Of a stretch of 21,540 nucleotides of DNA, positions 1 through 21,274 are shown piece by piece; within the stretch, counting starts at the first letter, position 1; every line of letters begins with the position of its first letter. The stretch lies in NCBI GenBank assembly GCA_038883795.1, contig JAVZLK010000026.1, positions 1 to 21,540 of the forward strand. The letters run 5' to 3'. The notes under the pieces are model-generated. The model worked only from the letters and a program-made list of their open reading frames with translations, was not told the DNA's origin and did no database searches. Source of the DNA: Candidatus Bathyarchaeia archaeon (GTDB taxonomy: Archaea; Thermoproteota; Bathyarchaeia; Bathyarchaeales; Bathycorpusculaceae). The position numbers were made by a program, and so were the translations under genes.

Positions 1-1
1 T

Positions 2-79: not shown

Positions 80-80
80 G

Positions 81-1305: not shown

Positions 1306-1384
1306 CCCATATGTTTCACCTCCTTTTTATAGTATATACTTCATGCTCTATCTATATACTTTCTTCCATAAATATTTACCGCTC

Positions 1385-1436: not shown

Positions 1437-1477
1437 AGTTAATGATAACCAAATCGACTGCCTTTTAACATCTTGAG

Positions 1478-1708: not shown

Positions 1709-1761
1709 AAAGGCGTTTCCTTTCTACACTTTCAAGCATATGAGATCTTAGGGGGAAGTAA

Positions 1762-3198: not shown

Positions 3199-3208
3199 GG
3201 ATGCTCAA

Positions 3209-4549: not shown

Positions 4550-4577
4550 GACGTAAGGAGTGAGGTGAAAATAGACT

Positions 4578-5192
4578 TTGAAAGAAGTAAGTTTGACTAC
4601 ACCCTTGAGGAAGGAGGACGTTGCAGATCTAAAAGTTGGAGATGTTGTTTATTTGAGTGGAGCAATATACACAGCTAGAGACATGGCTCACATCAGAATC
4701 ATGGAGTATCTAAGAGAGGGAAAGCAGCTCCCCGTAGACCTAACAGGGGCAGCGATATTCCATGCTGGTCCTGTTGTAAGGAGGAAAAACGAAGAATGGG
4801 AGGTCATTGTTATCGGGCCTACGACAAGCACGCGAATGGAACCGTTCTCAGAAACATTACTTGGGAAACTTGGAGTAAAGGCAATAATAGGTAAAGGTGG
4901 AATGAATAAAGGCACCCAAGATGCATTAGAAAAGTATTGTGGTGTTTATCTTCTGGCTCCGCCTGGATGTGCAGCAATACAAGCGAAGTTCGTACAAAAA
5001 GTGGAGGCGGTTCACTGGTTGGATCTGGGTATGCCCGAAGCAATATGGGTTATAGAAGTGAAGAACTGGGGACCACTGGTGGTAGCGATGGATTCTCATG
5101 GAGGGAACCTTTTCAAAGAAATAAAAGAAAAAGCTGTGGCAAGGATGCGTGAAATCTTAAAAGCGGAGGTTCCTGATGAAAACATTAAATGA
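4578..5192 (+). CDS. Fe-S hydro-lyase, tartrate/fumarate subfamily, beta subunit (class I fumarase C-terminal / TtdB-like)
   Basis: LKVGDVVYLSG, TARDMAH, HAGP, GPTTSTRM, IGKGGM, DLGMPEA, MDSHGGNL; GAGGTGA RBS. Confidence 0.93.
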   Translation: MKEVSLTTPLRKEDVADLKVGDVVYLSGAIYTARDMAHIRIMEYLREGKQLPVDLTGAAIFHAGPVVRRKNEEWEVIVIGPTTSTRMEPFSETLLGKLGVKAIIGKGGMNKGTQDALEKYCGVYLLAPPGCAAIQAKFVQKVEAVHWLDLGMPEAIWVIEVKNWGPLVVAMDSHGGNLFKEIKEKAVARMREILKAEVPDENIK

Positions 5193-6096
5193 AAAAACTA
5201 TATATGAAATTGCCTTAGAGCTTGTAAAGAGAAGTTGCACGGGAATAGCTCCAGATGCCCTAGTACTGCTGAGAAGAGCTCATCAGAGCGAGAGAAGCTT
5301 GGCCGCGAGAAAAATGTTGGAAACCATGATACATAACGCAGAGCTCGCCACTAAAACAGGTAAACCTATGTGCCAATCACCAGGTTATCCCGTTGTCTAT
5401 GTAAGAACTGGTTGTGATATAAAAATAAATGCAGATATTCAGAAAACGTTTCAGAGGGCAATAGTTGAATCTACAAAGAAAGGCTACCTTCGACCGAGCA
5501 TAGTGCACCCAATAACCAGAAAAAACCCGGGAGACAACTCAGGAGTGGGTATACCCGACGTAGAAATAGAACTAGATCCCAACTTAAACTACATGGACTT
5601 TACAATAAGTTTCAAAGGATGTGGCTCAGAAGTGGCCAACGTGTTGAAAGTTCTTACCCCAGTGCAAGTAGGCAGAGACGGCATTGGAATTAAAAAACTT
5701 GTTCTCGAAAGCACAATTGCCGCTGGAGGAATCCCTTGTCCGCCGGTAGCTATCGGAATAGGAATTGGTGGGCAAATGCATTACGCCGCAAAGCTTAGCA
5801 GAAGAGCCGTTAGTGTACGAGAGTGGACCGACACAAACCCAAATGAAGAATTAGCCAGATTAGAGAACGACCTACTCTTGGCTGTTAACTCCTTAGGAAT
5901 AGGTCCAGCTGGTGTTGGTGGCAATACAACCGCACTTACTGTAAAAGTAGAGATGGCTGATACACATACAGCAATATGCCCGGTAGCAATAAATTTCCAC
6001 TGCTGGACTGCAAGGCGCAGCGGAGCGAGAATATACCCCGATGGAAGCGTGAAATTTAAAGAAGATATGTACCCACTTAAAAAAGAGGTTGTGTGA
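5176..6096 (+). CDS. Fe-S hydro-lyase, tartrate/fumarate subfamily, alpha subunit (class I fumarase N-terminal / TtdA-like)
   Basis: Three cluster Cys in PMCQSPG, PCPP-x3-GIGIGG and CW; also LRPSIVHP, DNSG, KGCGSE, GIGPAGVGG. Confidence 0.92.
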   Translation: MKTLNEKTIYEIALELVKRSCTGIAPDALVLLRRAHQSERSLAARKMLETMIHNAELATKTGKPMCQSPGYPVVYVRTGCDIKINADIQKTFQRAIVESTKKGYLRPSIVHPITRKNPGDNSGVGIPDVEIELDPNLNYMDFTISFKGCGSEVANVLKVLTPVQVGRDGIGIKKLVLESTIAAGGIPCPPVAIGIGIGGQMHYAAKLSRRAVSVREWTDTNPNEELARLENDLLLAVNSLGIGPAGVGGNTTALTVKVEMADTHTAICPVAINFHCWTARRSGARIYPDGSVKFKEDMYPLKKEVV

Positions 6097-7460
6097 ATTT
6101 GGCATTTATAAAAACCCCTTGCCATCCCGTAGATTGGGTTCTTTTTAAACACAATTTAGCATCCCCTGACATGAGAGATGTATTTAATGAAAGAAACTTT
6201 ATTGAAAAAATACTCAAGGTTGAAGTGGCTTTAGCGGAGGCTGAAGCGGAGCTAGGAATAATACCCGAAAAAGCGGCAAGAGAGATAGCTAAAAAAGCGT
6301 CAATAGAATACATCGACTTAGAGAAAGTTGAGCAAAGGGTTCAAAAAACAGGTCATTTCTTGGTGGCGATTATTGAATCATGGAGGGAAAAGATAGGAGA
6401 AACTGGTGAATTCTTACATTGGGGAGCAACAACACAGGATATCTCTGATACCGCGATGATATTACTTATTAAAGATGCATGCGACCTGATCTTAAGGGAT
6501 CTGTTCGAAATAAAAGGCTTTCTTGTCGACTTGGCAAAAAAGTATAAAGACACCCCAATGGCTGGTAGAACACATTGTGTACACGCCGTTCCCATGACAT
6601 TTGGATTAAAAGTGGGTGTATGGCTCGATGAGATATCACGGCATATAGAACGGCTTAAAGAGATTCAAAAAAGACTTTTTGTTGGCAATATAACTGGCGC
6701 AGTAGGCACATTTGCAAGTTTTGGTCCCAAGGGACCAGAAATACAGAAGTTAACACTAAGGAAGTTAGGTCTCGAAGTTCCAGCTATATGCTGGCATGCC
6801 GCACGCGATAGACTAGCCGAATTTTTAAACCTTTTAGCGATAATAGCATCCACGCTAAGCAAAATTGCAAATCAAGTATTAATTTTAATGAGACCAGAAA
6901 TACTTGAAATTGAGGAACCAATTCCGCCCGGCCATGTCGGAAGCAGCACTATGCCCCAGAAAAGAAACCCATTTTTAAGCGAAACAAGTGTTGCTTTAGC
7001 GAGAATAATACGAGCACATGCCCATATAATGACAGAATCTATGGAGACACTTGATGAGAGAAACTTTAGCACATGGTTTGTGGAATTTGTGATAATACCT
7101 GAATGCTGTCTCTTTCTTAGTATAATACTCAAAAATCTTAAAACCATTCTACAGAAGTTGGAAGTCCACCCAGAGAACATGAGAAGAAACTTGGAGATAT
7201 CTGAAGGATTAATAAATGCCGAAGCGGTGATGATGGCTTTAGCACCAAAAATCGGGCGACAAAAGGCGCACCACATAGTCTATGATTGCGCTATGAAGGC
7301 TCAAAAGGAGAAAAAACCATTTAGAGATGTCCTATTAGAAAACGAGACTATTACAAAGCATATAAGTAAGAGAGATCTTGAGAAACTGCTAGATCCAGCA
7401 AGCTATATCGGTCTGTCATCGGATATAGTCAAACAACTTACTTCCTCGGAAAACATGTAA
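6093..7460 (+). CDS. Aspartase/fumarase-superfamily lyase (adenylosuccinate-lyase/PcaB-like, fumarate-releasing C-N or C-S lyase)
   Basis: Signature GSSTMPQKRNP; HWGATTQDI, AGRTH, GAVGTFAS; C-terminal LLDPASYIG. Overlaps the upstream stop (GTGA). Confidence 0.88.
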   Translation: MNLAFIKTPCHPVDWVLFKHNLASPDMRDVFNERNFIEKILKVEVALAEAEAELGIIPEKAAREIAKKASIEYIDLEKVEQRVQKTGHFLVAIIESWREKIGETGEFLHWGATTQDISDTAMILLIKDACDLILRDLFEIKGFLVDLAKKYKDTPMAGRTHCVHAVPMTFGLKVGVWLDEISRHIERLKEIQKRLFVGNITGAVGTFASFGPKGPEIQKLTLRKLGLEVPAICWHAARDRLAEFLNLLAIIASTLSKIANQVLILMRPEILEIEEPIPPGHVGSSTMPQKRNPFLSETSVALARIIRAHAHIMTESMETLDERNFSTWFVEFVIIPECCLFLSIILKNLKTILQKLEVHPENMRRNLEISEGLINAEAVMMALAPKIGRQKAHHIVYDCAMKAQKEKKPFRDVLLENETITKHISKRDLEKLLDPASYIGLSSDIVKQLTSSENM

Positions 7461-7471
7461 GGTAAAGTGTT

Positions 7472-9172
7472 ATGGAAAAAGCCACTCATGACATAGTTAT
7501 TGTTGGCGCTGGCTTGGCTGGTTTAAGAGCTGCTGTTTCAGCTGCGGAATACAGCGACAAACTGGACATAGCCATCATTTCTAAGCTTCATCCACTGAGG
7601 TCGCATTCCGTTTGCGCTCAAGGTGGAACCGCTGCGGTAATGCGTGAAAAAGACTCCTTTGACTTGCATGCCTTTGACACCGTGAAGGGCGCCGACTACC
7701 TAGCGGACCAAGATGTTGTGGAATTCTTTGTTAGGCAAGCTCCCAAAGAAATTATCTTGATGGAGCATTGGGGTTGCCCATGGAGCCGCACATCAGACGG
7801 GAAATTAGACCAGCGGCCCTTCGGCGGCCACACATATCCAAGGGCTTGCTTTGCAGCGGACATGACGGGCTTTCATGAGATGCACACGCTTTACGGCAAG
7901 GCGGTAACCTATCCAAACGTGAAGTTTTACGACGAATGGTTCGCCACATCGCTTATCGTTGAAGACAACACGGTGTTGGGCTTAACAGCCATAGAACTTA
8001 AAACAGGCGAAATGCATGCCTTCCAAGCCAAAGCCGTTGTTATGGCGACAGGCGGCCATGAACGCATATACGAGTTCACAACGTTCTCCCACACGACGAC
8101 AGGCGACGGTATGGCCATGGCTTACAGGGCAGGCGCACCCCTAGAAGACATGGAGTTCGTCCAATTCCACCCAACGGGACTCGTGCCATCCGGCGTTTTA
8201 ATAACCGAAGGCGCCCGAGGCGAAGGCGGCTACTTGATAAATGCTCAAGATGAACGCTTCATGAAACGCTATGCGCCAGCAATGATGGAGTTGGCGCCCC
8301 GAGACGTGGTTGCAAGGGCTGAACAAACCGAAATCCTCGAGGGAAGAGCCTTCCAAGGACCTTATGGGCCTTACATCACCCTAGACCTTAGGCATCTGGG
8401 CGAAGAGAAAATCAACGAGAGGCTGCCTTTGATACGGGAAGTAGCCATAAAACTTGCCGGAGTGGACCCGGTTAAGGAGCTTATTCCCATTCGGCCAGCG
8501 GCTCACTACTCCATGGGCGGGATTAAAGCCAACATCCGAACTGAGACTCTTATCAGAGGTTTGTATGCGGCTGGCGAATGCTCATGTTTAAGCTTGCATG
8601 GCGCCAACAGGCTTGGAACAAACTCTACGGCTGAATGTCTCGTTTTCGGGGCTGTTGCCGGCGAGGAGGCAGCCAAATGCGCCTTGTCCGCAAGCTTCCG
8701 CAAATTTCCAATGGAAAAGGCTTTAGCTGAAGAAAAACGGGTTTTTGACGGAATCCTCGGCAGCGAGGGTGGCGAAAAAGTTCCCCAACTTAGGGATGAA
8801 CTGCGAAGGCTCATGAACACTAAGGTTTGGATTTTCCGCAACGGCGAAGAATTGAAAAGCGCCCTCAAAGAGATTAGAGCGCTTAAAGAACGGTTTAAAC
8901 GCATAAAGGTTGAGGATAAAGGGAAAACCTTTAACACAGGCTTTGTGGCTGCCCTTCAGCTCGATTTCATGTTGGATTTGGCTGAAGTCACAACCATATG
9001 CGCTCTCGCAAGAACCGAGTCCCGCGGTGCCCACACGAGGCTTGACTATCCAAAAAGGGACGACGAGGAATGGCTTGTCCACACGTTAGCCTACTACACC
9101 GTGGATGGCCCGAGGCTTGACTATATCCCGGTGACAATCACGAAGTGGCAGCCAGCTGCAAGAAAGTATTAG
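7472..9172 (+). CDS. sdhA: Succinate dehydrogenase/fumarate reductase flavoprotein subunit (SdhA/FrdA/TfrA-like)
   Basis: [16 protein letters not shown] (covalent-FAD His), [43 protein letters not shown]. Confidence 0.95.
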
Positions 9173-9187
9173 GAGGGGATACGCCTC

Positions 9188-10753
9188 TTGAATGGTGAAG
9201 TTGTGAAGGTTGTTGAGTTCCGGATTCGCCGGTACGATCCAGACTCCAAAAAGAGCTACATTTCCACCTATAAGGTTCCGATTCTCCGTGGAACAACAAT
9301 CCTTGACGTGCTCAACTATATTAAGGAGAATTTGGATGAGACTCTCACGTTTAGGCATTCCTGCAGAATGGGGATTTGTGGAAGCTGCGCCGTAAACGTT
9401 AACGGCAAGCCCATGTTAGCATGCTACACGCAAGTTTTAGACCTAAACGCTGACACCATAATTATCGAGCCGCTGTCAAACCTTCCGGTCATAAAGGACT
9501 TGGTTGTGGACATTCAGCCTTTCTTCAAAAACTATAGGAAGATTAAAAACGTGTTGATCAAGCCGGCTGAAGCCTTCAAAAAGCCTGAAGAGTTTATACA
9601 GTCACCTGAAGACCTCAGAAAATACTGGGATTTGACGCTCTGCACGAAATGTTCGGTTTGCTATTCAGCTTGTCCAGCTGCCATAGACGAGAGGTTCCTC
9701 GGGCCTTCAGCCTTGGCAGTTAACTACAGGTTTATCGCCGATTCAAGGGATGAAGGGCTGGACGAGAGGCTTAAGGTTATGGCTGACAATGTCTGGCTTT
9801 GCACCGCATGCAATTCCTGCACGCTTTTCTGTCCAAAGCTTGTTAACTGTGCAAGCTCTGTGGTGGAAGATCGCAGTCTGTTGGTGGAGATGGGGGTCGT
9901 TCCAAGAACCGTCAAAGATGTCCTCGAAAGCGTTATGAAATATCACAACCCCATGGGAACTCACCAGAGCAAGCGTTTGGCTTGGGCTGAAGGCTTAAAC
10001 ATAAAAGCGTACCCAAACGTGACGAAGGCGGACGTGCTATACTTTGTCTGTTGTTCAGCAGCCTACGACATAAGGAACAGGGAAGCCGCTAGAGCCATGG
10101 CGGCTTTGCTGAACAAGCTGAACGTTGATTATGCCACTTTAGGCGAGGAGGAATGGTGCTGTGGAGACCACATCCTCCGCATGGGTGAGAAAGGCTTGTT
10201 TGAAATGCTTGCAGAACACAATGTGGCTGTTTTCCAAAAGTTCAACGCAAACCTCGTTGTGACACTTTCACCCCACTGCTACAACACCTTCAAAAACGAT
10301 AAGCCCTACAGGGATTTAGGCCTAAACGTCCAGCATTACACGCAGTTTCTAGCCGAAGCCATAAACCAAGGCAAACTTAAACCATCAAAACCATATCCAA
10401 AACGGGTCGCCTACCACGACCCATGCTTCTTAGGGAAACGAAACCAAATTTACGACGAGCCAAGGCAAATTCTACAGTCAATAAACGGCCTAGAATTTGT
10501 AGAGATGCGAAGATCCCGCGAAAACAGCTTCTGCTGTGGCGGTGGAGCGGGTAGAGTCTGGACTGAAGAGGCTGACTCGGCGAAAAGGCCGTGTGTGAAC
10601 CGCGTCAAGGAAGCTTTAGAACTTGAAGTTGACACCATTGCAGTTGCATGCCCCTTCTGTGTAACAACTTTTGAAGACGCTGTAAAAGTTCTAGGAGTGG
10701 AAGACAAAATAGTCGTTAAAGACATCCTCGAGATTCTAAAAGAAATTCTTTAA
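9188..10753 (+). CDS. tfrB: Fumarate reductase Fe-S subunit fused to two CCG domains (TfrB-like; SdhB + HdrD-type)
   Basis: 2Fe-2S CRMGICGSC...LAC; 4Fe-4S CTKCSVCYSACP and CTACNSCTLFCP; CCG repeats (WCCG...SPHC; HDPC...FCCGGG...ACPFC). Confidence 0.85.
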   Translation: MNGEVVKVVEFRIRRYDPDSKKSYISTYKVPILRGTTILDVLNYIKENLDETLTFRHSCRMGICGSCAVNVNGKPMLACYTQVLDLNADTIIIEPLSNLPVIKDLVVDIQPFFKNYRKIKNVLIKPAEAFKKPEEFIQSPEDLRKYWDLTLCTKCSVCYSACPAAIDERFLGPSALAVNYRFIADSRDEGLDERLKVMADNVWLCTACNSCTLFCPKLVNCASSVVEDRSLLVEMGVVPRTVKDVLESVMKYHNPMGTHQSKRLAWAEGLNIKAYPNVTKADVLYFVCCSAAYDIRNREAARAMAALLNKLNVDYATLGEEEWCCGDHILRMGEKGLFEMLAEHNVAVFQKFNANLVVTLSPHCYNTFKNDKPYRDLGLNVQHYTQFLAEAINQGKLKPSKPYPKRVAYHDPCFLGKRNQIYDEPRQILQSINGLEFVEMRRSRENSFCCGGGAGRVWTEEADSAKRPCVNRVKEALELEVDTIAVACPFCVTTFEDAVKVLGVEDKIVVKDILEILKEIL

Positions 10754-10765
10754 ACTCCTTTACCT

Positions 10766-10810
10766 ATTTCCCTTTTTTCACTAAAATGTCAGTAGATTGA
10801 TTTTTGTGTT
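10766..10810 (+). terminator. Probable archaeal oligo-T terminator of the operon
   Basis: T-runs (tttccctttttt, tttttgtgtt) immediately after the last stop codon. Confidence 0.4.
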
Positions 10811-11211
10811 GGTTTTATGCCTGCATTACATTGTCCTCATTTTATCTGGTTTTATGGGCTTTATGGCTGTCCGGACTATAAGTATTATGGGCTATTATGC
10901 AGGTAAAGTGCGGGTTGGGATGTTTCTCGTCCTCTTAAGTACATGATATGTTCGAACAATGTGGTGTTATTTGATTGTGCACAATAACTTAACAGCACTA
11001 ACAGAACAACAGCGCTACTTTTCCACTGCATGTTTCCAAAGTAAAGGTGCGGTGGGTTACGGGCGATACTTGGGGATAATGATTTGGAGGGTGGCTGTCG
11101 CAATTGACAGTATCCTTTGAAAGCCTCTCTGGTGGATAGTGTCCATTGAAGGAGGCAGAAAATTCTTGTGTTTTCATCGTGAGCATTTATTGAGGCAGAA
11201 TCAGTGAAGAC

Positions 11212-11875
11212 TCATAGCCGACCAGCCTTCAGCTGATGCTGAATGAGTTGCCGTTTGTAATCATGTGATTTAGGTTGAAATTTTGTATTCCTTAAGTTTT
11301 TGGCTAGCATTTTCCTGAACTTTTTCATTAAAATGTTCATGACGTTATCCGCTGTGGTTCTCGCTTCATCCATTTCAAATGCAGCTTTCACGTCTAGGGC
11401 TAGACCGCATTTCATACAGAACTCGCGTCATATGCGTTTGTGGCTTCACATCTCGGGCATATACGCGGTGTGAGTTTTGGCTTCTATTCAGTTTGCTTTT
11501 TAAGTCCATAAACGCATAGAATGGCGTCGTTAACGTCTCTTCTGAAAGTTGCACGTATATGCTTGGCATCTCTGAACTCTGCTTCCACCCAAATATCTGG
11601 TTCATATGGGCTTCTGTAAGCTTACCCGCTAGGAAAGTGGCTCGGCTATGTCGGAATTTATGAGGTGTGACGCGCTTCTTTATTCCTGCCTTTTGGCAGC
11701 AACTTTCAATATTTAGCTAGGGCTGGATAGCTCATGGCTTGTAGCGGTTAACCTGTTCCCATGTTAGTCCATAATGGGCTTTGGGCTTAGCCCTAAGGGG
11801 GTGATTCTGTATCCAGCTTGAAGGTACGGTGTAGCTGCAACTACTACGATGCACCTCGAGTCAGTCTTTCCCCCT
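11212..11875 (-). pseudogene. Tyrosine recombinase/integrase remnant (C-terminal part, archaeal type with Zn ribbon)
   Basis: Manual translation across frameshifts: GKTDSRCIVVVAATPYLQA / WIQNHPL / KAGIKKRVTPHKFRHSRATFLAGKLTEAHMNQIFGWKQSSEMPSIYVQLS (HxxR, W, catalytic Y) / RDVNDAIL...ICPRC / CMKCGLALD. Several frameshifts and one in-frame stop; N-terminus absent. Confidence 0.9.
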
Positions 11876-11900
11876 AGGCATGAGCGCTATGTGAACGCCC

Positions 11901-13527
11901 TTGGCACGAAATCATTTCCTTATATATTATTTAAATGAGTTAGAAAGTGACCCGACAAAAGATTTTTTGTTAGTTATGCATGTAAAACACATGTACCTTG
12001 AGTTTTTCAAGAACCAGAATAATGGGGCAAGATGGAAAGAAAGACTGGACACCCTTAAAGATTTAGACCTAACGCTCAGTCCAATATTTGAAGCTGTTTG
12101 GCTTTTTGGTAAATGGAAGATTGAGAAAAATTATGAATTAGCAATTAAATCAGCCAAAAAATTTGAAGAGATGGAAAGGATAGCTTATGAGAAAAACTGG
12201 TTTTGGATTTTAACGTGCTGTTTGGAAACAGCTGTTTACATCTATAAAATGTTAGGATATGAGGAACGGCTGAAACTGGTTTCAAAAAGGATAGTTGGCT
12301 ATCTAAAAGAGAAGAAAGAAACGTTCCCTCTTCATACAATATTGGAAGTGAGTCGTTTGTTTAATGATGTAATAAACGTCGCCGAAAGGGAAGATATAGA
12401 GTACGTCTATGTAACGCTGATTGAATTCTCGGAAAGAATGTCAGAGGATAAGAATTTCAATTTTCAAAGAGGCTTTTTGTTTGAGGCGATAAAAATTGCG
12501 AAATTCTTAAAACTCAAAGATGATGAAAAACAACTACATGAAAAACTTATACAGAGTTGGATTAATGAAGCACATGAGAAGGGAAGAACAAGCAAATTAG
12601 TCAAACATTTTATTCTTCAAAAAGCATTAGATTACAGTGTCAAGATAGGCGATAAAGAAAGGACGCAGCAACTGAAGAAAGAATTAGCTGGAATTGATTT
12701 TTCGGACGAGCTAAAAGAGATAACCCTGCCAGAGCAAGAACGAGAACAACTCGAAAAAATCGCTAAAGAATACTACGAAACGCTAGGAGAGAGCATTCGA
12801 GAATACCTTAATAGTTTAAGCAATCTCCCTTCAGCGCAGATACTTTTGAATATATGCATGAATGAATCGATAATTCGCATCAATTTAGAAAAAACAAAGG
12901 AATTTGTACAAAAGTTGATGAGAGAACATCCGCTGCAAAATATTTTTAGCACTATTTTACTCGCCAGCGAGAAAACTATTCGATTAGAATCTATTAAAGA
13001 TAAAGAGAAATTTCAACTAAACCAGCAACTAAACTTTGGAGTACTTGAAACAATTTGGGTGATAACTCGGATTCTTAGAGAACTCCAAGATAAAAACATT
13101 TTAACAATGTCTTTGGTTGCTGATTTTCTTTCACGATGTAATTTAAGCAAAAAAATAACTTTGAATTAATTCTGCATGGAGCAAAACATCATTTTCAAGG
13201 CGATTATGTAGCTTCCGTTTCAATCTTGACACCATTAATCGAAAGCATATTGATTATTTACGTGCAATAGGAGCGGATGTTTCAAGCTATGAAAGCAAAA
13301 TTATTGAGCAAAGAGAACTTGGTGGGCTTCTAAATCTAAAGGAAGTTAAAGATAATTTTGGCGAGAATTTTCAATACTTCTTAAACTACTTTTGGTTGAA
13401 GCGAATTCTATTAACTTCAGAAATAGGTTTGCTCATGGAAATGTGGCAATAGAAGAGTTTAATGAAAGTACCTCTTCTGTCATCCTTTTTCATAATTTTA
13501 AAAATTTGTTCAAAAACTTTTAATTAG
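11901..13527 (+). pseudogene. DUF4209-like (HEPN, R-x4-H) domain protein, frameshifted in the C-terminal domain
   Basis: The 422-aa helical ORF continues in shifted frames: FELILHGAKHHFQGDYVASVSILTPLIESIL / DYLRAIGADV...LGGLLNLKEVKDNFGENFQYFL / KLLLVEANSINFRNRFAHGNV (RNRFAHG at 13419-13439). Start codon uncertain. Confidence 0.75.
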
Positions 13528-14029
13528 CATAAAAAGCTGAATTACAAAGTAGGTATATCAAATAGATATCGTTTTAACTTGTTCCACCCAAAATTAAAAT
13601 AAAGGCTTAAAAGTCCTTTTTGGATATAAACGGCTTTTACTGTAACAATCTAGCAAGGAGCAACAGCACAGACAATTCTACCTAAAATAGGCGCACTACA
13701 TTATAGAAATAATTTACTTTGTTACTCAACGGCACGTTCGCCACTAATGATGGAAGGTTTGTTGGTTAGGGATCGAATGTCAATGAAAAAGGCTATACTT
13801 ACATGTAAAAGTAGGAGCCCAAGCGCATTTACGTTGGAAAGGGCGCGTCTTCAAAGGGAAACGTAACGGTTAATGTTTACAAGACTTGGCAAAGTATTAT
13901 GTTTAAAATTGGGACTCAAGAAGCAGGCAAAAGTCCAAGGCGAATTTTTGGGCCGTTAATTATGCCCTATTATCTACTACTTCTACTGCTCTTGGACGTG
14001 TTAGGGGCTTCACAATAACGCTTCTTTAC

Positions 14030-14557
14030 ATGTTGTTTGATGGTGATGGGCGCTGTTGCGACTTGGCTGAAAGGGCTGGAAAAAACCAGAATTATGTTTG
14101 GCGGTATTTGAAGAACATGCAAAGGTATGGTTTAGCCTTGAAAAATGGTGATTTTTGGTTTTTGACTGATTCTGGGGTTGAATTTGTTAAGTATTTGAAT
14201 TTCACATATAATAATATAAATGATTATCGAAAGAAAGTAGAAACTAACCAGCCAAAAACAACAAAACAAATTCCCATAAGCTTGTGGCTGCAAAATTCTG
14301 GCTTAGACAATGTGGAAAAGGAAGTAGTAGAAGTATTATTAAACCATTACAATGAAACAGGCTCAAAATTCATCCTTGTTAAAGACCAGTTTGAACTTGC
14401 AGAAAAATTAAATGCAAACCCCGGTGAAATTCTCGAAGCACTTAAAAACCTTAGACAAGACAACATAATCTACCTATACCGCTCAGACATACAAAACTAC
14501 TGGAAAATAGGGCTCAAAATAAATTTCTTAAAAATCTTAAAACTAAGTAATATTTGA
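14030..14557 (+). CDS. Tandem winged-helix DNA-binding protein (element regulator/replication-type); 5' end probably damaged
   Basis: Two wHTH-like units: CDLAERAGKNQNYVWRYLKNMQRYGLALKNGDFWFLTDSG and ELAEKLNANPGEILEALKNLRQDNIIY...WKIGL. The frame stays open upstream (GRVRGFTITLLY) with no start codon. Confidence 0.65.
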   Translation: MLFDGDGRCCDLAERAGKNQNYVWRYLKNMQRYGLALKNGDFWFLTDSGVEFVKYLNFTYNNINDYRKKVETNQPKTTKQIPISLWLQNSGLDNVEKEVVEVLLNHYNETGSKFILVKDQFELAEKLNANPGEILEALKNLRQDNIIYLYRSDIQNYWKIGLKINFLKILKLSNI

Positions 14558-14578: not shown

Positions 14579-16888
14579 TTAAAGAAACCAAGCTTTCTTC
14601 CAGAGGTTAGGGCTCTTCAGCTCTAATTTCGCCGCTAAAGCGGCAGCTTTGCTGGCAAAATGAGTTGTTACCGGCTTGGAAGTCACCGCTAACATATATC
14701 CTCCATAAACAAGAGAAAGGTCGAAAACTTCCTTGCAAGTTTCGCGAATTAATTCCGTGCTTGGTTTTGGCTTCTTTACTTCAATAGTTATCGGCTTTTG
14801 AGCACCACGAATTTCCTGAGGTGGTCCGCTTGTAACTAAGATAGCTTCACTTGGTGTTGTCTGTATATAGCTACCCCTCTTCACCATATAATCTGCTGAA
14901 GCCAGATCATATATTCTATGTATTCCGAGCTTCTTTATACTCACTATCTTAGAGTCTGGCTTCATGGATTGTTCTATAATTTTCATTTCGAGATCAGACC
15001 ATATTTCGCCATCCTTATGTAAAACAACCTGCCTTGGGAGTCCGTGAATTTTTGAAAAAACTTTTACAGCATCATTAAGTCTGCTTTCTAATACTTCTGG
15101 ATAATTTTTCTTGCGAACAGCTTCAGTCCACCCACCAAGCCATTGACCGTAATTATCAAAGACTTGTAGGGACATATAAACAACATCTTTCCGTATGATG
15201 GAAGAGAGTCCTATGAAACATTTCTGTTCACCAACGGGCTGGTCTAGTATCCAAGCTATCCCTCCTATTTTAGCATAAATACACAGTGATAAATTTTTCA
15301 AATACCCGGAATATTTTGAAATTGAAACATTGGGACCAATATTCTTCTCCAAAACAAATTGGCAGGGGATTCCTTCCTTAGATAGTTCTTGCTTATAAGG
15401 CTTGTATTGCCTTACATTTTTTTCTCCCGTTAGTTTTGTTATTATTATTGCTATATGTGGCTGTCTTCGGAAACGAATTCTTGACTCTCGCACGCTTTTT
15501 TGAACAACATCATCGGTAAATCTTGGAATGTTTACTCTAAACAATTTTTTTAATCCAGGAAAACTCGGTCGATTAGAAAAACCTTCAACCAAGTAATTAT
15601 AGAAATTCATAATAGCTTCCTCTGGAAGGTCTGAAAAATTAAAAATTGTTATATAGACTTCGTTAAACCATCTCTTCGGTTTTCCATCCAGGTCGTAAGG
15701 CCCATAAGACTCCAATCCAATATAAGGTTCTAATTCCGTTTTATTTTTTGCGAAACGTAATCGTGGTTCGTTGAAAGTTTCATAATGCTCCCATATTTTA
15801 CCTTTAGAGCCTGCTTCTGCAAATCTACGCACAAGCCTAAGCGGAGGGAGTCTGCCTATTTTAATGTCGTCCACGTATGTTAAAAATCCTTTAGTTAGAT
15901 ACCAGCGTTCCTTCATAGATGGTTGAATATGTTTCATCACAAAAAGTCTACTGAATTTATCAAGCTCATGTAACTTTAACTCTTTTCTTAATCTTTCTAG
16001 TGGAAACTCGAGTATGTCACCAGTGCTTAGGATTTCAATAAGTGCAACTGGAGGCTTGTCTTTAATCGATCTTCCAAGTAAGCCCTCATTAGGACATATG
16101 TCTTTTCTTTGATGATATTCAATTAAATTCCCATAACTTGCATTAGAAGGAGTTTTGGTGAAGTCAAGCCTTGCAAGTAAACGTCTTCTTCCAGCTCCTT
16201 TTAACCGGCAATTGCTTGATGGTGTTTTACGTAATTTGCAATCGATTATCGGACATGCATCAACTACCGTTTCCCCTTCAATGATGGAAACTATCTCTTC
16301 ATTAGTTTTTCCAGCACTTTTCATCTCATCAATAATTTCCCTATAGTTTTTCCTGGGAACAAATCGAAACTTTGGATCAATCAATACAGCACATGAGCCG
16401 TCTTCGTAAACATAGGGCACAAAAATAAAACCTGGATATACGTCCATAACACCCATTGACAATTGTTCGCTGAGATTAAAGGACCAATAGTAAACTTGCT
16501 TGTAAGCTTCGACAAACCACCCTCTTGCTATCTGCTGATTTGAAATCGCTCTAGCCATAAGCCTTCTCAAAAGCTCTCTTCCATTGAGATCGCTTGGGTA
16601 AACATTTTTCGTTTCATCTCTGAGCCAATGAAATTGACCGTTTTTATTCGATACGTTTAATGTCTTTGGTAAAAGTGCAGGGTTCGAAGAAGCACAACAA
16701 ATAGATGAATAAGACTGCACTGCCACTAATGACAACTGAGTTTCAGTTTCCAGTTTTGAAATAGCCTTACCTACCACATACAGATTTTCTTCTGGAATTA
16801 TTTCCGTTGGTTTATAAAATACTAGGCTCACACCATCTTTGAAAGGCTTTCCCTCAAACTCAAAAATATTAACTTGCAGGTTCCTCAT
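14579..16888 (-). CDS. ago: Long prokaryotic Argonaute, catalytically inactive (long-B-like)
   Basis: 769 aa. N-terminal LQVNIFEF strand; L1-like DVYPGF...VLIDPKFRF; L2 EPRLRF...YGPYD; MID YKPYK...IPCQ...NLSLCIYAKIGG; PIWI CFIGLS, VLHKDG, RGSY, PVTTHFASK; C-terminal WFL. Tetrad D1 and D4 positions are Ser. Confidence 0.92.
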   Translation of the reverse strand: MRNLQVNIFEFEGKPFKDGVSLVFYKPTEIIPEENLYVVGKAISKLETETQLSLVAVQSYSSICCASSNPALLPKTLNVSNKNGQFHWLRDETKNVYPSDLNGRELLRRLMARAISNQQIARGWFVEAYKQVYYWSFNLSEQLSMGVMDVYPGFIFVPYVYEDGSCAVLIDPKFRFVPRKNYREIIDEMKSAGKTNEEIVSIIEGETVVDACPIIDCKLRKTPSSNCRLKGAGRRRLLARLDFTKTPSNASYGNLIEYHQRKDICPNEGLLGRSIKDKPPVALIEILSTGDILEFPLERLRKELKLHELDKFSRLFVMKHIQPSMKERWYLTKGFLTYVDDIKIGRLPPLRLVRRFAEAGSKGKIWEHYETFNEPRLRFAKNKTELEPYIGLESYGPYDLDGKPKRWFNEVYITIFNFSDLPEEAIMNFYNYLVEGFSNRPSFPGLKKLFRVNIPRFTDDVVQKSVRESRIRFRRQPHIAIIITKLTGEKNVRQYKPYKQELSKEGIPCQFVLEKNIGPNVSISKYSGYLKNLSLCIYAKIGGIAWILDQPVGEQKCFIGLSSIIRKDVVYMSLQVFDNYGQWLGGWTEAVRKKNYPEVLESRLNDAVKVFSKIHGLPRQVVLHKDGEIWSDLEMKIIEQSMKPDSKIVSIKKLGIHRIYDLASADYMVKRGSYIQTTPSEAILVTSGPPQEIRGAQKPITIEVKKPKPSTELIRETCKEVFDLSLVYGGYMLAVTSKPVTTHFASKAAALAAKLELKSPNLWKKAWFL

Positions 16889-17688
16889 ATTTTACTATGC
16901 TCCATATAAATGTTTAATGGATATGAATCTGGACCCAACGCCACCCTCACTTCAGCATTTTTCCATATCCTTCTAGTCACCCTCTCGATATAGTATAATA
17001 CGATGTATGCGAATGCCTGAGCCATTTTATGCCATTTTGTAGTTTTCACCAAATCCTCCATGAACGAATTCTCAATATCCAAAATGCTCTCATATATTGT
17101 AACTTGAGCTGCAAAATCTCCGTCCTTACTTATTTCGATATCAGATTCAAAATTTTCGTTATCATCTTTAAATTCTAGCTCTATCTTGTTTTCTTCGACG
17201 CTAGGTGTTTTCTTAAAAAACGGTAACCTACATAGTTCATTCGCGAGTAACTCGTGGTCAAATCCATCTGCATTTATTACGCCTGTTACACCTCCGACAA
17301 ACCCAGGCTTTTCCCTTATTTTATTTTCACTTAGCTCCTTTTCAATCCTACTAAAAACATCAAGAACATAGCTTCCATACTTTGTTATAATATAATTTCC
17401 TTCAGCAGTTTGGTCAATAAGTGCGTTGTCTTTCAGAACTTGCAGGTCATAGGTTAGCCTTTGAGAGTTATAATCCATCAGTCTTCTAGAAGATTGAACG
17501 TCTCTTAAAAGTTCAGCAAAACGCGTTTCTCCAACACTTGATTTACTAAGGGATTTTAAGATGGCCAGGCGATTTTGGCATACAGCAGGTTTTTGACTGA
17601 AGACTGCTGAAAAGATATCGGAGGCTCGTATCCTTTTATTTGTATTTTCTATTTTTGATTTATCATTAAGCACTTTTCGTCGTTGCAT
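16885..17688 (-). CDS. Ago-coupled protein: N-terminal winged HTH plus C-terminal alpha/beta domain
   Basis: NRLAILKSL...RFAELL...SQRLTYDLQVLKDNALIDQTAEGNYIITKYG is an ArsR/HxlR-like wHTH. Its stop overlaps the ago start (ATGA). ATG 17688 is preferred because minus-strand TTTATACA (17717-17710) lies ~25 nt upstream. Confidence 0.8.
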   Translation of the reverse strand: MQRRKVLNDKSKIENTNKRIRASDIFSAVFSQKPAVCQNRLAILKSLSKSSVGETRFAELLRDVQSSRRLMDYNSQRLTYDLQVLKDNALIDQTAEGNYIITKYGSYVLDVFSRIEKELSENKIREKPGFVGGVTGVINADGFDHELLANELCRLPFFKKTPSVEENKIELEFKDDNENFESDIEISKDGDFAAQVTIYESILDIENSFMEDLVKTTKWHKMAQAFAYIVLYYIERVTRRIWKNAEVRVALGPDSYPLNIYMEHSKI

Positions 17689-17709
17689 GTATGTTTTTAC
17701 TTTGTAAGT

Positions 17710-17781
17710 TGTATAAAAAACTTTTGTGTTAGGAAACATGCTAACAAAAAAGTTATTTTGTATTCCCAAATACTTTTAAGT
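17710..17781. promoter_or_regulatory. Divergent archaeal promoter pair with a central 18-bp inverted repeat
   Basis: TATA-like TTTATACA (- strand, 17717-17710) and TTTTAAGT (+ strand, 17774-17781). Arms AAAAAACTTTTGTGTTAG (17715-17732) and CTAACAAAAAAGTTATTT (17741-17758) are 16/18 complementary with an 8-nt spacer. Confidence 0.65.
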
Positions 17782-17808
17782 TATTATGTAAAGATACAAA
17801 ATTGGTGA

Positions 17809-18267
17809 ATGGAAATGGAGACCATAATGGAATCAGCCGCTGATCATTATAGGCATCTTGGAGCAACCAGTTTATGTAGTGGACTTGCTATTGAATGTTT
17901 AATATCTCTTGAAAAATATCGAGTAACAAAAAATCAATCTGCCCTTAGACCCACCATATCAGAGTGCCAAATCTTTATCAAACAAACTATTGCTGCACTT
18001 AAGGAAGAAAAAGCTCCCTATCTTGTAAGAAGAGTATACCGAGAATTGTTAGATAAAAACAATACGAGCAGAGATGGATTATTAAGAGGCTGGCAAGCTG
18101 TTGATGATATAATATCCGAAATAAGGCAAGGTCATGAACCCGATGAGAAGCGTATAGATGAATGCATCAAATTTTTAAAGACCATCATATCTCAGTTTAA
18201 TGATATTAGCGAGCATCTGGAGAAGAAACTGTATGCCTCCTCCTGGTTCACAAGAGAACTCTGGTGA
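17809..18267 (+). CDS. Hypothetical all-alpha protein (152 aa)
   Basis: Intact ORF with amphipathic helices; GGTGA RBS at 17804-17808 (start may be ATG 17815); overlaps the next gene. Confidence 0.75.
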   Translation: MEMETIMESAADHYRHLGATSLCSGLAIECLISLEKYRVTKNQSALRPTISECQIFIKQTIAALKEEKAPYLVRRVYRELLDKNNTSRDGLLRGWQAVDDIISEIRQGHEPDEKRIDECIKFLKTIISQFNDISEHLEKKLYASSWFTRELW

Positions 18268-19483
18268 AACCGAATTATGGGAGCATCGAATTAAAGTTAT
18301 AATGAATGACTATGGAAATTATATCGAAAATGAGTTACCCTACATAACTATACCAGGCAAATACTCAGAATTCTTAAAAACGATAATAAGAGACTTACAC
18401 TCAAAGATCAAATCATCTCTTGAAAATTTGAGAGACCATGAATTATCAAGTGATATTGCTCTTATTCTTAGCGGAGCTACGAGATACAATTTATCTCGTG
18501 TATGGCACACGGTGCTTGATTTAACTCAGAATACCGTGGATGTCCCTAAAGATCTATATTTTTTCATGGACAGCGTTTATGAGCGCCTTGGCGGTGAAGA
18601 AGTGCCTTATTTTATTAAGCTTACCCTCACTAATTTAGTGCCAGGCACTGTAGACATCTGTAGATACGTTTTGCGGCCATTTCTTGTAAATCTACGGGAA
18701 GCTTTTGAGTATCTAACAAATAAAAAAGCCTATATTATTTTTGCAACACCCTCGCTGATGAAAAATCCCGTCGATTGGGCTCTTCTTATCCATGAGGCAG
18801 CTCATATTTTAGAGGAAGAGAAACTTCAGATTGTTATAAATTACTACCCTCAACTCAGGCAGGAATTGTATCTGGGTGGATATAACTTGGCCTCTACTTC
18901 ATCATTGGATGTTGAAGAAGCTATGCCAAACTGGGCATTAGAAATAGCATGCGATATATTAGCAACGATTTCGTGTGGACCTATTTTTGGCTATAGACTA
19001 TATGATAATTTTTTCAGGGAAGAAAAGAGTTTATACGGAACACATCCACCGATTAAAAAAAGGTTAAAGTTAATAGCGGATGAGCTGGAAAGATGTGGGT
19101 GGACGGAGGAAGCAAGTGATATAAAGGCTAAAATTAACTGCGTTCGTATGCAAGAGTTTATTGAGAATGTTTCGCTTCCAGAACATTGCGATAGGATCAT
19201 TGAAGATATACGGGCTAAAGCTAGAAGTGAAAAAATAGAGTATAAATGCACAGAGGAATTGCGAAAGCATATTAGCCTATTAGGAGAGAGACTAAACAAT
19301 TTAAAACCATGCATAACGGTTAAAGGAGAATATGTCGATTTGAAAGACTTACTAAATGCTTCGCAACATGTCAAGAAAGAGTTAGCAGAAACTCAAGAAT
19401 TTAAAGAATTTTTGGCAGATATGATTAGATTAATAACAACAAGGGACTTATATCGCAAATATGAATCATTGCTCACCAAGTAA
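18233..19483 (+). CDS. HEXXH gluzincin-like putative metallopeptidase (M48/Lit-like motif set)
   Basis: LLIHEAAH (HEAAH 18791-18805), third ligand EIACD (18941-18955), THPP-x3-R (from 19040); no obvious TM helices. ATG 18233 follows GGAGA; the ORF track starts at 18200. Confidence 0.75.
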   Translation: MPPPGSQENSGETELWEHRIKVIMNDYGNYIENELPYITIPGKYSEFLKTIIRDLHSKIKSSLENLRDHELSSDIALILSGATRYNLSRVWHTVLDLTQNTVDVPKDLYFFMDSVYERLGGEEVPYFIKLTLTNLVPGTVDICRYVLRPFLVNLREAFEYLTNKKAYIIFATPSLMKNPVDWALLIHEAAHILEEEKLQIVINYYPQLRQELYLGGYNLASTSSLDVEEAMPNWALEIACDILATISCGPIFGYRLYDNFFREEKSLYGTHPPIKKRLKLIADELERCGWTEEASDIKAKINCVRMQEFIENVSLPEHCDRIIEDIRAKARSEKIEYKCTEELRKHISLLGERLNNLKPCITVKGEYVDLKDLLNASQHVKKELAETQEFKEFLADMIRLITTRDLYRKYESLLTK

Positions 19484-20284
19484 TTTTTTTGATAGTGTCT
19501 TCTCATCTTTTTCGATCTTTTCTCGTATTTTATTTATGAGTTGCAGATCCTTATCTTCATATATTTTACTAGGAGTTGGCTTTGTTTGGCGATAATATTT
19601 TCTCTCGGTAGGCTCAAGCCCGCTATAACCAACTTCTACCTCTGGGATTTCAAAGAACAAAAGCCTAGCAATTCTCATCAAGGGTAACAGCTTTACGGGC
19701 ATTTTACCATCATTATGAAGCTCTAATGTCAAATGCCCTTCCCATCCCGGGTCAATGGAAGAAGCAGTTGAATGAACCACTACGCCAAGTCTTCCAAGCG
19801 AACTTCGTCCGTCAATCAATCCAAACAAATCACGAGAGAGTGATATATACTCAAAAGTTTGACAATTTACAAATTCACCTGGCTGAAGCGTATACTTACC
19901 CCTAAACAAATCTACTGTAACCAGTTTTGTAGAGTCATATGGGTCCATGCGTTCGTGGACTTCAACTATGCCCTTGCCAGTGTGTTTAGTTTCCAAAAAA
20001 TAGCAATCCAACCTCACATCAACAGAAGAAGATCCAATCTGGTTTTTCTCATCCAATATTGGAACGATAAAAATGCTCTCATTCTTTATGCGTTCTTCTA
20101 TATCCTTTTTGGTAAGCAACTTGCAATATCGCTTCATTTGTGCCAAAATATCCTCATACGCGTCTTTCCAGTTAGACAAAGATTTAGAGATGTGTTTCAC
20201 CCCACATTTAATTTTGTAACAGGTCTTTCTTAAATTTAACCATACTTCCCTAAACAGTTTTGAATTAGTCTCAATCTTAAGCAT
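19466..20284 (-). CDS. dcd: dCTP deaminase (trimeric dUTPase fold), possible ~55-aa N-terminal extension
   Basis: QIGSSSVDVRL, LQPGEF, DGRSSLGRLGVVVHSTA, IDPGWEGHLTLELHN (equivalents of E. coli Dcd S111/R115/H121/E138 retained), KYYRQ. The canonical core starts at TTG 20119 (LLTKKDI). Confidence 0.92.
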   Translation of the reverse strand: MLKIETNSKLFREVWLNLRKTCYKIKCGVKHISKSLSNWKDAYEDILAQMKRYCKLLTKKDIEERIKNESIFIVPILDEKNQIGSSSVDVRLDCYFLETKHTGKGIVEVHERMDPYDSTKLVTVDLFRGKYTLQPGEFVNCQTFEYISLSRDLFGLIDGRSSLGRLGVVVHSTASSIDPGWEGHLTLELHNDGKMPVKLLPLMRIARLLFFEIPEVEVGYSGLEPTERKYYRQTKPTPSKIYEDKDLQLINKIREKIEKDEKTLSKKLLGEQ

Positions 20285-20313
20285 AGTAAAATTCCATTCG
20301 ATTTGAACTTATA

Positions 20314-20478
20314 TCAGCTATGCATCTTTTCAATTACGAGATTCAACTTTTCTGCATATTGCAAGAACGCCATGCGTAGTGTTTCACTTTCGCTTTGTCC
20401 CAATTTTTCGCATATTCTGTCGAGTAGTTCTTTGTGTTATGGGCTTAAAACAACCCTTACAATATGTTTCTTTGCCAC
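20314..20478 (-). pseudogene. Ribbon-helix-helix (CopG/Arc-like) protein with an internal stop
   Basis: Manual translation VAKKHIVRVVLSP*HKELLDRICEKLGQSESETLRMAFLQYAEKLNLVIEKMHS*: alternating strand, helix A, G-x-S turn, helix B. TAA at 20439-20437. Confidence 0.75.
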
Positions 20479-20557
20479 TTTTTGACCATCCCATTGTATA
20501 ATTCAATTTATGTTTTGAAACATATATTTTTATAGGGCAGAGCATAAAAGGCGGGTT

Positions 20558-21274
20558 TTGGCTCTGCCTTGGGAAGAAACCGATCAGTATATTCGTTCTG
20601 GACACCGTAACCCAGACGACTTTGACCCTGACAGTTTTCGCACTATAACGCTTAGTGAAGATGAGGGAATAAAGGCTGTTGTTGGCAAGCTTAAGGGCGA
20701 AGATAAGACAACGGTGCAGAGCTACCTTTTTGACAAGGCTAAAAGCTGGACTGTTGAGAAGGCTAAGGCTTGGTTTGAAAAGCACCGTGAAGCCGTAGTT
20801 AAGGAGCATTTTAGCGCTATTTTACCCTTCAAGGTTTTGGAGAGGATTGTTGACAAGCCTTTACGCATTAAAGGCATTGCGATGACTGCGGGCATGAGCA
20901 GAAACTTCAACATTTACACGCCAGAAGAACTGCAAACCTTCGCCCAGAAGCTTGTTTCCGCTCCCGTCTACATCGAGCATGTTGCTGTTCCTAATGCTGT
21001 TGGCAAAGTAACGAAAACCGAATGGGATGGCGCTAACCTTTGGTATGAGGCTGAAATATACGTTAATGAAACAGCCGAAAGAATCTGCAAGGGCTTAATC
21101 CAACATGTAAGCGTAGGCGCAGACTACGAAACATTAGACGTTTTGGATGGCAAAGTGCCTCATGGCTTACAAAAGTCAAGATCCCATGATGCCCTTATGA
21201 ACAAACTGGCTTTTGGAGTAGAGAAAAAGGGAGTTTGCGGGGGATATCACCATAAAAGTGCGAGTCCGTACTAG
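20558..21274 (+). pseudogene. Truncated caudoviral prohead/maturation protease (HK97-like) with an extra N-terminal domain
   Basis: IKGIAMTAGMSRNFNIYTPEEL...PVYIEH...AVGKV...LWYEAEI...HVSVG fits the His/Ser assemblin-type pattern. The expected ELSLV-type strand is missing after GKVPHGL (~21170), where the frame runs into unrelated sequence. Confidence 0.72.

Follow-up and report, generated by a model that had tools for sequence, protein, structure and literature searches.

What could a long prokaryotic Argonaute (pAgo) without its catalytic tetrad be doing next to genes for a winged helix-turn-helix (wHTH) protein, a small helical protein, an HEXXH zincin and a dCTP deaminase (Dcd)? This question is raised by a contig of a Candidatus Bathyarchaeia archaeon (JAVZLK010000026.1 of assembly GCA_038883795.1), where five intact, close-packed open reading frames (ORFs) at positions 14579–20284 make up a cassette of 5.7 kb. 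The window referred to below is the entire 21.5-kb contig, 21,540 nucleotides long (G000:C26; G and L numbers are our working labels for genomes and loci). An earlier note made from the letters of this DNA proposed that the five genes form a new defence system of a slicer-dead long pAgo and four partners. Our ORF listing agrees with the note on the five intact, tightly packed genes and their coordinates, and all the overlaps that it described are found. Specifically, the Ago and wHTH genes share 4 nt (16885–16888), the helical and zincin genes share 68 nt when the longest ORFs are counted, and the 3′ ends of the zincin gene and dcd share 18 nt tail-to-tail (19466–19483). Zincin homologues are 416–420 aa long in public gene calls, and a start of that kind would shrink the overlap with the helical gene.

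Our results show that these five genes are passed on as a unit, the arrangement of which is fixed. Profile-guided scans placed the Ago clade in the window, in genome G038 and at 3 genome and 15 metagenome loci, while a scan of contigs with the single Ago sequence gave no match. After removal of duplicates (L111 = L005, L112 = L021) and joining of L020 with L021, two contigs of one metagenome-assembled genome, 17 distinct loci were left. Enough flanking sequence is available at 11 of these, and each of them has the full set of dcd, zincin, helical, wHTH and Ago genes in the same order and orientation. Close relatives of this Ago do stand beside zincin and dcd genes, as the idea of a single system in the earlier note presupposed. 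The remaining loci are cut by contig ends (two inside the zincin gene, three at the wHTH gene and one inside the Ago gene), and no cassette locus lacks one of the five genes where the sequence exists. Counted gene by gene, the wHTH gene is present at 16/16 distinct clade loci that reach its position, and the fast-evolving helical protein has a positional orthologue at 13/13 loci that reach its place. Complete cassettes span 42–88% Ago identity, all within Bathyarchaeia. G038, from another family of the same order, has a 54%-identical Ago and the identical five-gene arrangement. Identity groupings are broadly alike for all five proteins, and pairwise identities follow those of Ago with Spearman coefficients of 0.86 for wHTH, 0.46 for dcd, 0.45 for the helical protein and 0.34 for the zincin, values computed over kin that are not independent. 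In the protein database the clade comprises 31 Ago clusters of 42–100% identity, and near-identical or related copies of the cassette are found in contigs of four metagenome runs from three studies. The cassette Ago is patchy in distribution, being present in 2 of 61 relatives, and its flanking genes vary from locus to locus.

The Ago gene (14579–16888, minus strand) encodes 769 aa. It is recognised as pAgo by PADLOC with an E-value of 6.6e-62, and the Pfam Piwi model gives 28.2 bits, slightly below the cut-off of 28.9. When the clade profile was compared with the PDB, CbAgo and CpAgo were the best matches (90 bits, 7.9e-25), followed by AaAgo, short pAgos, EcAgo (52.6 bits) and RsAgo (30.8 bits). 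The match to solved Argonautes is limited to the MID-PIWI half, and residues 1–470 have no sequence match to any solved Ago. The closest solved relatives are thus of the long-A type (CbAgo/CpAgo), an assignment by best match and not by a labelled MID-PIWI tree. In the alignment to CpAgo, the three catalytic Asp positions are occupied by S562, D626 and S746, i.e. the first and last Asp are replaced by Ser and the middle one is retained; it is important to note that the deposited CpAgo, from which the positions were taken, is a mutant that differs at one Asp position (D3, the middle Asp). A full DEDX tetrad is present in 0/28 clade Agos. In contrast to the lost tetrad, Y495, K499, Q510 and K540 are invariant in 28/28 clade members, and Y-K-Q-K is the motif of the MID pocket that holds the guide's 5′ end. 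Judged from these residues, the Ago is catalytically dead and is predicted to have retained its guide-binding pocket, in line with the slicer-dead long pAgo of the earlier note. We noticed also that four cysteines (C212, C217, C227 and C265), together with D210, P213, P223 and G231/G233, are invariant in 28/28 Agos (window 15200–16260; residues 210–269). These cysteines sit in the N-terminal half, in the part that does not match solved Argonautes, and the Cys4 cluster may be a zinc-binding insert at the expected position of PAZ.

Dead Argonautes with associated proteins are a known kind of system; the partners found here are not known ones. In SPARTA, SPARSA, SPARDA and SiAgo-Aga1-Aga2, a dead Ago serves as guide-dependent sensor and is combined with an effector, the output being abortive or depleting. 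Nucleases, NADases and membrane disruptors are the known outputs of dead Argonautes. In our cassette, none of the five proteins has a nuclease, Sir2 or TIR match in Pfam or PADLOC, and none contains a hydrophobic stretch of transmembrane grade (the maximum 19-aa hydropathy is 1.47), which bears out the statement of the note that no described pAgo partner can be recognised. Unlike the Ago of short pAgo systems, the cassette Ago is 769 aa long, its N-terminal half matches no solved Ago, and it lacks a partner of the APAZ, TIR, Sir2 or nuclease kind. Unlike SiAgo-Aga1-Aga2, the cassette has no transmembrane partner such as Aga2. A close parallel in logic is given by the long-B BPAN, BPAS and BPAM systems, in which, according to the available text of Song et al. 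2023 (PMC10620215), a full-length inactive pAgo is tied to separate presumed effector proteins. Our cassette resembles them, as they are described there, in having an inactive full-length pAgo genetically tied to separate proteins. It differs from that description in its partners, which are the wHTH, helical, zincin and Dcd proteins in place of a nuclease, Sir2 or membrane protein (Pfam, PADLOC and hydropathy), in its best solved relatives, which are long-A (90 bits) and not long-B (EcAgo 52.6, RsAgo 30.8 bits), and in its archaeal host.

The dcd gene (19466–20284, minus strand, 272 aa) matches TIGR02274 with 149.5 bits against a cut-off of 92.8 and Pfam DCD (PF22769) with an E-value of 1.7e-33, and the note had rightly called it a dCTP deaminase. 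The best match in the PDB is 2qxx (1.9e-29), a chain named deoxycytidine triphosphate deaminase, with which the GRSS and LEL motifs align; we take 2qxx to be the bifunctional enzyme of M. tuberculosis. In the 11 cassette copies of dcd, S161, H171 and E188 are invariant and R165 is conserved in at least 90%; catalytic roles of the corresponding Ser, Arg and Glu are known from E. coli Dcd. Since the conserved part begins near residues 51–57, translation may start at Met51 (20134). A separate housekeeping dUTPase-like gene of about 177 aa is present on contig C1 of G000 and in 34/41 relatives, and dcd is therefore an accessory copy: full-length dcd of the cassette type occurs only in G000 and G038 among the same 41 relatives. 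By its conserved active site, this paralogue of the dUTPase superfamily is a predicted dCTP deaminase. A dCTP deaminase that acts in defence has been described, and the available text of Tal et al. (bioRxiv 10.1101/2021.04.26.441389) presents it as a protein of 576 aa that combines a kinase at its N-terminus with a zinc-dependent cytidine-deaminase domain, and defines the group by kinase plus zinc cytidine-deaminase and a length over 350 aa. Compared with the enzyme as described in that text, the likeness is confined to predicted chemistry and logic, i.e. deamination of dCTP in order to deplete it upon infection. In contrast, the cassette enzyme has the Dcd/dUTPase fold (PF22769, TIGR02274), has no PADLOC match and belongs to a multi-gene cassette.

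The HEXXH protein (18200–19483, plus strand, 427 aa) is preceded and overlapped by the gene of the small all-helical protein (17809–18267, plus strand, 152 aa). In the zincin alignment the invariant residues are H198-E199-x-x-H202, E248-x-x-x-D252, H282-P283 and R288, and H198, E199, H202, E248 and D252 are invariant in 16/16 sequences across all architectures described below. HExxH followed downstream by E-x-x-(A/C)-D, the ExxAD motif with the Glu ligand, marks the M48 and M56 families. The structural model (predicted local distance difference test, pLDDT, 71.4) comprises an N-terminal three-helix bundle, a catalytic domain and a helical C-terminal region. In VIA it aligns over 161–190 residues with BepA (Z 8.8, 163 aa aligned), 3c37 (7.5), ZMPSTE24 (7.4) and Ste24 (7.2), and it aligns also with abylysin (7.0). 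These Z scores of 7.0–8.8 to gluzincins are moderate, in the range that VIA calls common for helical models, and they are outranked by generic bundle matches to the three-helix bundle. By sequence, the protein has no match in Pfam (including M78 and M56), PADLOC, NCBIfam or PHROGs and no PDB profile match at E ≤ 1, and Foldseek against the PDB gave no match at E ≤ 0.001. Motif and model together identify the HEXXH protein, in qualified terms, as a probable soluble M48-like gluzincin, and the zincin of the earlier note is upheld to this extent. It shares the HExxH and E-x-x-(A/C)-D motifs and the fold matches with M48/M56 gluzincins (BepA, Ste24/ZMPSTE24, HtpX, BlaR1). Unlike these, it has no Pfam or PDB sequence match and no membrane helices, and it has its own three-helix bundle and helical C-terminal region. 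An exhaustive profile search of 1.84 billion proteins found 471 representatives of the zincin family at E ≤ 1e-3, of which 43 reach E ≤ 1e-30, and the family is broader than the Ago clade; a look-up of 10 representatives gave only one label, 'hypothetical protein'. The helical protein has no match in Pfam, PADLOC, NCBIfam or PHROGs, and an Atlas search with it yielded generic helical bundles only, below the threshold for naming.

How might these products act together? The reading that we put forward tentatively, giving it somewhat less than an even chance, is a single defence cassette, conserved and modular, that Bathyarchaeia have built around a dead, guide-binding-competent long Ago. As a sensor, the Ago and probably also the wHTH protein that is co-translated with it would hold small nucleic-acid guides and recognise invading nucleic acid. 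The pair of helical protein and zincin would link recognition to output through proteolysis; candidate substrates of the protease are the Dcd tail, the helical protein or the wHTH protein. Dcd would then turn dCTP towards dUTP/dUMP, and the synthesis of viral or plasmid DNA would be starved.

Distribution of the parts beyond the cassette is informative in this respect. We sampled 401 genomes of the class and scanned them with the clade Ago profile, since Pfam Piwi (E ≤ 1e-5) misses the Ago of G000 itself. A pAgo-like match was found in 21 of the 401 genomes and is long (frame of at least 700 aa) in seven. A small ORF plus zincin adjoins six of these seven long pAgos (G000, G038, G026, G147, G236 and G399) in three architectures, and the long pAgo of G274 has no such neighbours. 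In G026 another long Ago is convergent with zincin and small ORF, and G147 and G236 are arranged likewise (type 2). The zincins beside the other Agos are homologous to that of the cassette (hhalign 98.1%, E 1e-13) and have identical invariant motifs. The small proteins of types 2 and 3 have no detectable similarity to the cassette helical protein (hhalign 5.7%), and their equivalence is positional only. With the cassette zincin profile, nine of the 401 class genomes matched, two of them with full cassettes. Helical, zincin and dcd genes stand together without Ago in G376, G347 and probably G200, where the locus is cut by the contig end. A phylum-wide sample of 401 genomes, searched with a broader zincin profile, gave seven matching genomes including G000: besides the same trio in G607 there are an Ago plus zincin in G719 and an Ago-like fragment plus zincin in G679, the latter two outside the class, zincin and small ORF stand alone in G179, and G470 and G448 are weak singletons. 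The helical-zincin pair thus accompanies long pAgos other than the cassette Ago without dcd or wHTH in G026, G147, G236, G399, G719 and a second system in L104.

Two of these loci deserve a description of their own. In G399 (L126, G399:C1 4730–9978) one co-directional operon runs from an HTH_3 gene through a PD-(D/E)XK nuclease (PF12705, 1e-14), an Ago of 794 aa and an ORF of 133 aa to the zincin; this Ago is a very close match of the solved chain 7r8k (1e-114) and has the middle catalytic Asp replaced by Gln. In L104 the region directly downstream of the cassette (L104:12344–16904) contains a 180-aa ORF, a 751-aa Ago (4e-23) and an overlapping convergent zincin of 448 aa with a 146-aa ORF upstream of it. 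This second system has the architecture of G026, G147 and G236.

The two sets of loci show that the small protein and zincin form a hub, which stands with long pAgos of several lineages and separately with Dcd. Because the trio occurs without Ago and the pair occurs with other pAgos, the system is modular: its arms are linked but separable, and the element that recurs with Argonautes in general is the protease pair and not dcd. Several observations weigh against the Ago-centred defence cassette proposed above. The trio stands without this Ago in G376, G347, G607 and probably G200. The zincin of G376, a genome that is 95% complete and whose sole pAgo is a distant short one on a different contig, nests among Ago-linked zincins (support 88/96). 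The trio therefore does not need Ago. The clade Ago profile found no clade-type Ago elsewhere in the trio-only genomes, and tblastn for Ago or wHTH remnants at the trio-only loci gave chance-level matches only (E at least 0.19). G179 has zincin and small ORF without Ago or Dcd. The Ago of G026 still has Asp at each of the three such positions that can be seen in the alignment, and hence the zincin pair is not specific to dead Agos in need of an effector. Of 77 distant pAgo loci in other phyla, not one carries any of the four partners. Moreover, dcd has a promoter side of its own and is convergent, not co-transcribed. Between subfamilies, the divergence of zincin and dcd is much faster than that of Ago and wHTH, and the subfamily boundaries differ slightly. 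This pattern fits some exchange of modules.

These observations bring up the explanation that two independent systems share one hotspot or promoter without cross-talk: Ago and wHTH, which would only bind or have an unrecognised output, and helical protein, zincin and Dcd, which would cause abortive infection or nucleotide depletion upon a trigger of their own. Such a coincidence would account for the trio being alone in three to four genomes, for the divergent transcription of the arms and their different rates of divergence, for L103 and L104 grouping otherwise for Ago than for dcd, and for another candidate defence gene next door. However, at 0/11 loci with sufficient flank, which extend to an Ago identity of 42%, do Ago and wHTH occur without the trio, and gene order, orientation and 3′ overlap are fixed. 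The zincin pair also joins three other pAgo lineages independently, which is not expected from hotspot sharing. We consider two unconnected systems unlikely.

The Ago-centred cassette can also be read more boldly. Guide-loaded long Argonautes of Thermoproteota, once on their target, would activate a protease module of their own, a soluble M48-like zincin restrained by its small helical partner, and in this cassette the zincin would then unleash Dcd, leading to depletion of dNTPs. We think this chain of events possible, yet doubtful. Its logic is known from CRISPR systems: in Craspase (type III-E) and CalpL, nucleic-acid-guided sensors drive proteases that cleave a small partner protein. The bolder reading is like them in the activation of a protease by a guide-bearing sensor, a likeness of logic only. 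It is unlike them in that the sensor would be an Argonaute and not Cas, and the protease a zincin and not caspase-like or Lon.

The wHTH protein may point to a different use of the protease. Its gene (16885–17769, minus strand, 294 aa) probably starts at Met28 (17688). The AlphaFold model (pLDDT 76.8) has a winged helix at residues ~46–154, followed by a conserved alpha/beta domain at 155–290. The winged helix aligns with RosR, MarR and PadR at VIA Z 10–12.8 over residues 46–154, which agrees with the fold assigned in the note. Matches by Foldseek are to two-domain regulators of the IclR type and to COR domains (E ~1e-4, low TM). The C-terminal domain had no usable match in the Atlas structure search; a PDB profile search with the wHTH alignment returned nothing significant, and Pfam gave no Penicillinase_R match at E ≤ 0.01. 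Upstream of the gene, the divergent intergenic region (17689–17808) holds an inverted repeat at 17715–17758 with 18-nt arms that are 89% complementary. Blocks of this region are kept in 5/5 close (subfamily-I) loci aligned, and a shared box recurs in 5/8 more distant loci. The repeat lies within the longest wHTH ORF and is intergenic only if translation starts at Met28; the equivalent start is used in the 85%-identical homologue L102. The box of the distant loci resembles what we take to be the archaeal B recognition element (BRE)/TATA element. We infer that the divergent region contains candidate core promoters and/or an operator for both arms. The earlier note had claimed one palindromic divergent promoter that serves both arms: the palindrome exists and its blocks are conserved, while its intergenic position depends on the Met28 start, the promoter role is inferred and dcd is not under it.

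A wHTH protein facing a conserved inverted repeat suggests a regulatory switch like BlaR1/BlaI, ImmA/ImmR or CapP/CapH, and this is the main rival explanation. The wHTH protein would be an autoregulated repressor at the palindrome, and zincin and helical protein would cleave it on a signal of infection or damage, whereby Ago is turned on and dcd relieved; Ago and Dcd would be the outputs and the protease would not be an effector. BlaR1, a zincin of the M56 family, cleaves BlaI, and CapP/CapH works by a comparable mechanism. The wHTH protein has indeed a two-domain architecture of transcription factors (IclR-type, E ~1e-4; MarR/PadR/RosR, Z 10–12.8) and its gene heads its operon, the zincin is of the M48/M56-like kind, and the operon of G399 starts with an HTH_3 gene and ends with the zincin. 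In G376 a gene divergent from the helical-zincin pair has a marginal match to Penicillinase_R (BlaI-type), with an E-value of 0.08 that is far below threshold. However, the type-2 loci (G026, G147, G236 and G719) have the zincin pair and Ago without an HTH gene in the cassette, and dcd is outside the divergent promoter. The wHTH gene is translationally coupled to Ago and its product tracks Ago most closely (0.86), as would a subunit. Moreover, the conserved intergenic boxes may be plain BRE/TATA elements, and the zincin lacks an M78 or M56 match in Pfam, so that the likeness to CapP/ImmA/IrrE (M78) or BlaR1 (M56) systems is confined to the architecture and the divergent palindrome. A switch of this design is in our opinion rather unlikely, though a serious rival; a regulatory role of the zincin itself, with the wHTH protein as its substrate, is equally compatible with the data.

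At its other end, the zincin gene is part of an arrangement that recurs across very divergent loci: its 3′ end overlaps the 3′ end of dcd in cassettes and trios, or that of the Ago gene in type-2 loci (e.g. 19466–19483, L124:9709–9744, L151:9903–9908). A convergent overlap kept in this way may signal antisense or transcriptional interference. One could suppose that helical protein and zincin are a safety device or antitoxin, which restrains a potentially self-toxic neighbour (Dcd, or the active Ago of type-2 loci) by proteolysis and/or by antisense transcription across the overlap; loss of control induced by infection would free the effector, and the cassette Ago would act in parallel. Tail-to-tail overlap of zincin and dcd is found in 11/11 cassettes and in G376, G347 and G607, and the Ago gene is overlapped likewise in G026, G147, G236, G719 and L104b. 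Against this, the genes are co-directional in G399, and the reading presupposes that Dcd is toxic or is a substrate. We regard the safety device as very unlikely.

The surroundings of the cassette bear on whether it belongs to immunity at all. Ordinary metabolic genes occupy positions 1–10753 (their products are a transporter, PrpD, fumarase, a lyase and a fumarate-reductase-like pair), and near 11.5–12 kb the G+C content falls from ~0.43–0.53 to 0.33–0.38. Between the metabolic operon and the low-G+C island lies ~1.1 kb (10753–11900) of short overlapping ORFs without a family match. Pfam gives no integrase signal there at E ≤ 1, and the segment is possibly a decayed junction. It is followed by a gene for a 422-aa helical protein (11901–13169, plus strand), which matches the PADLOC candidate defence family PDC-S39 at 2.8e-13, has no Pfam match and is not kept beside the cassette at other loci. 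According to the earlier note, the cassette lies inside a decayed provirus. This was not confirmed: no tRNA and no Rfam family was found in the window, the flanking ORFs have no integrase or structural-protein match in Pfam or PHROGs, and IMG/VR searched with the Ago and zincin profiles gave no match. The flanks at 14002–14503 and 20277–21000 (orf175, with PHROG matches, and the region of orf238) have a summed contig depth several-fold to ~100-fold above that of the cassette in four metagenome runs, and show many variant contigs and loose ends. They have the look of an element that is repeated or widely shared, the sole hint of a mobile or viral setting in the window. Elsewhere, tyrosine integrases with zinc-ribbon tails (PF00589, ~1e-22) lie a few kb from two type-2 Ago-zincin loci (L152:109–1239 and L163:4276–5568), which fits carriage on integrating elements.

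It could still be argued that this is a lineage-specific cluster for nucleotide metabolism or gene regulation that happens to include an Argonaute. Dcd belongs to a family of metabolic enzymes, and there is no known defence phenotype for the four partners, for which PADLOC has nothing at E ≤ 0.001, its sole weaker match being Csa3 (0.0025) on the wHTH protein. However, the distribution is patchy (cassette Ago in 2/61 relatives), the genes lie in a low-G+C island, dcd is an extra copy, and the flanks are variable, with integrases and defence-type genes; pAgos are established defence proteins. A non-immune cluster seems highly improbable to us. The setting supports defence through the PDC-S39-like neighbour, the low-G+C island and the integrases that flank related loci.

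Has such a combination been described before? The note had held that it has not, and searches of the literature for Argonaute or pAgo with dCTP deaminase, metalloprotease, peptidase, zincin or Bathyarchaeia, which did not cover supplements, found no account of the cassette. In the text of Ryazansky 2018 (PMC6299218) the words deaminase, dUTPase, peptidase, protease and HTH never appear, and its supplementary neighbourhood tables might list such genes. Long-A pAgos of Bathyarchaeia are reported in a survey, published in 2026, of defence genes from the subsurface, and its available text mentions neither deaminase nor metalloprotease. The only printed link of PIWI with zincin that we found is in pPIWI-RE, where the available text of Burroughs, Iyer and Aravind 2013 (PMC3702460) remarks on rare zincin fusions. 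As described there, pPIWI-RE is bacterial, overlaps Pfam DUF3893 and is encoded in REase-DinG-PIWI operons. The cassette differs from this description in having neither a DUF3893 match at E ≤ 0.01 nor a REase or DinG gene (Pfam, PADLOC). Membership of the cassette Ago in pPIWI-RE was considered and ruled out on the same DUF3893 result and on its neighbours, which are neither REase nor helicase.

If the proposed defence cassette is real, the protease and the dCTP deaminase of the dUTPase fold would be two new classes of output for dead Argonautes, and the former would be the first link between an Argonaute and a protease. It would also mean that immunity has drawn on the depletion of dCTP twice, by way of folds that are unrelated. 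Under the bolder reading, the cassette would be the Argonaute counterpart of the CRISPR-guided proteases. Since it adjoins six of the seven long pAgos sampled in Bathyarchaeia, the zincin pair may be the chief accessory module that archaeal long pAgos of this phylum have, a group on which experiments have so far yielded hardly any data.

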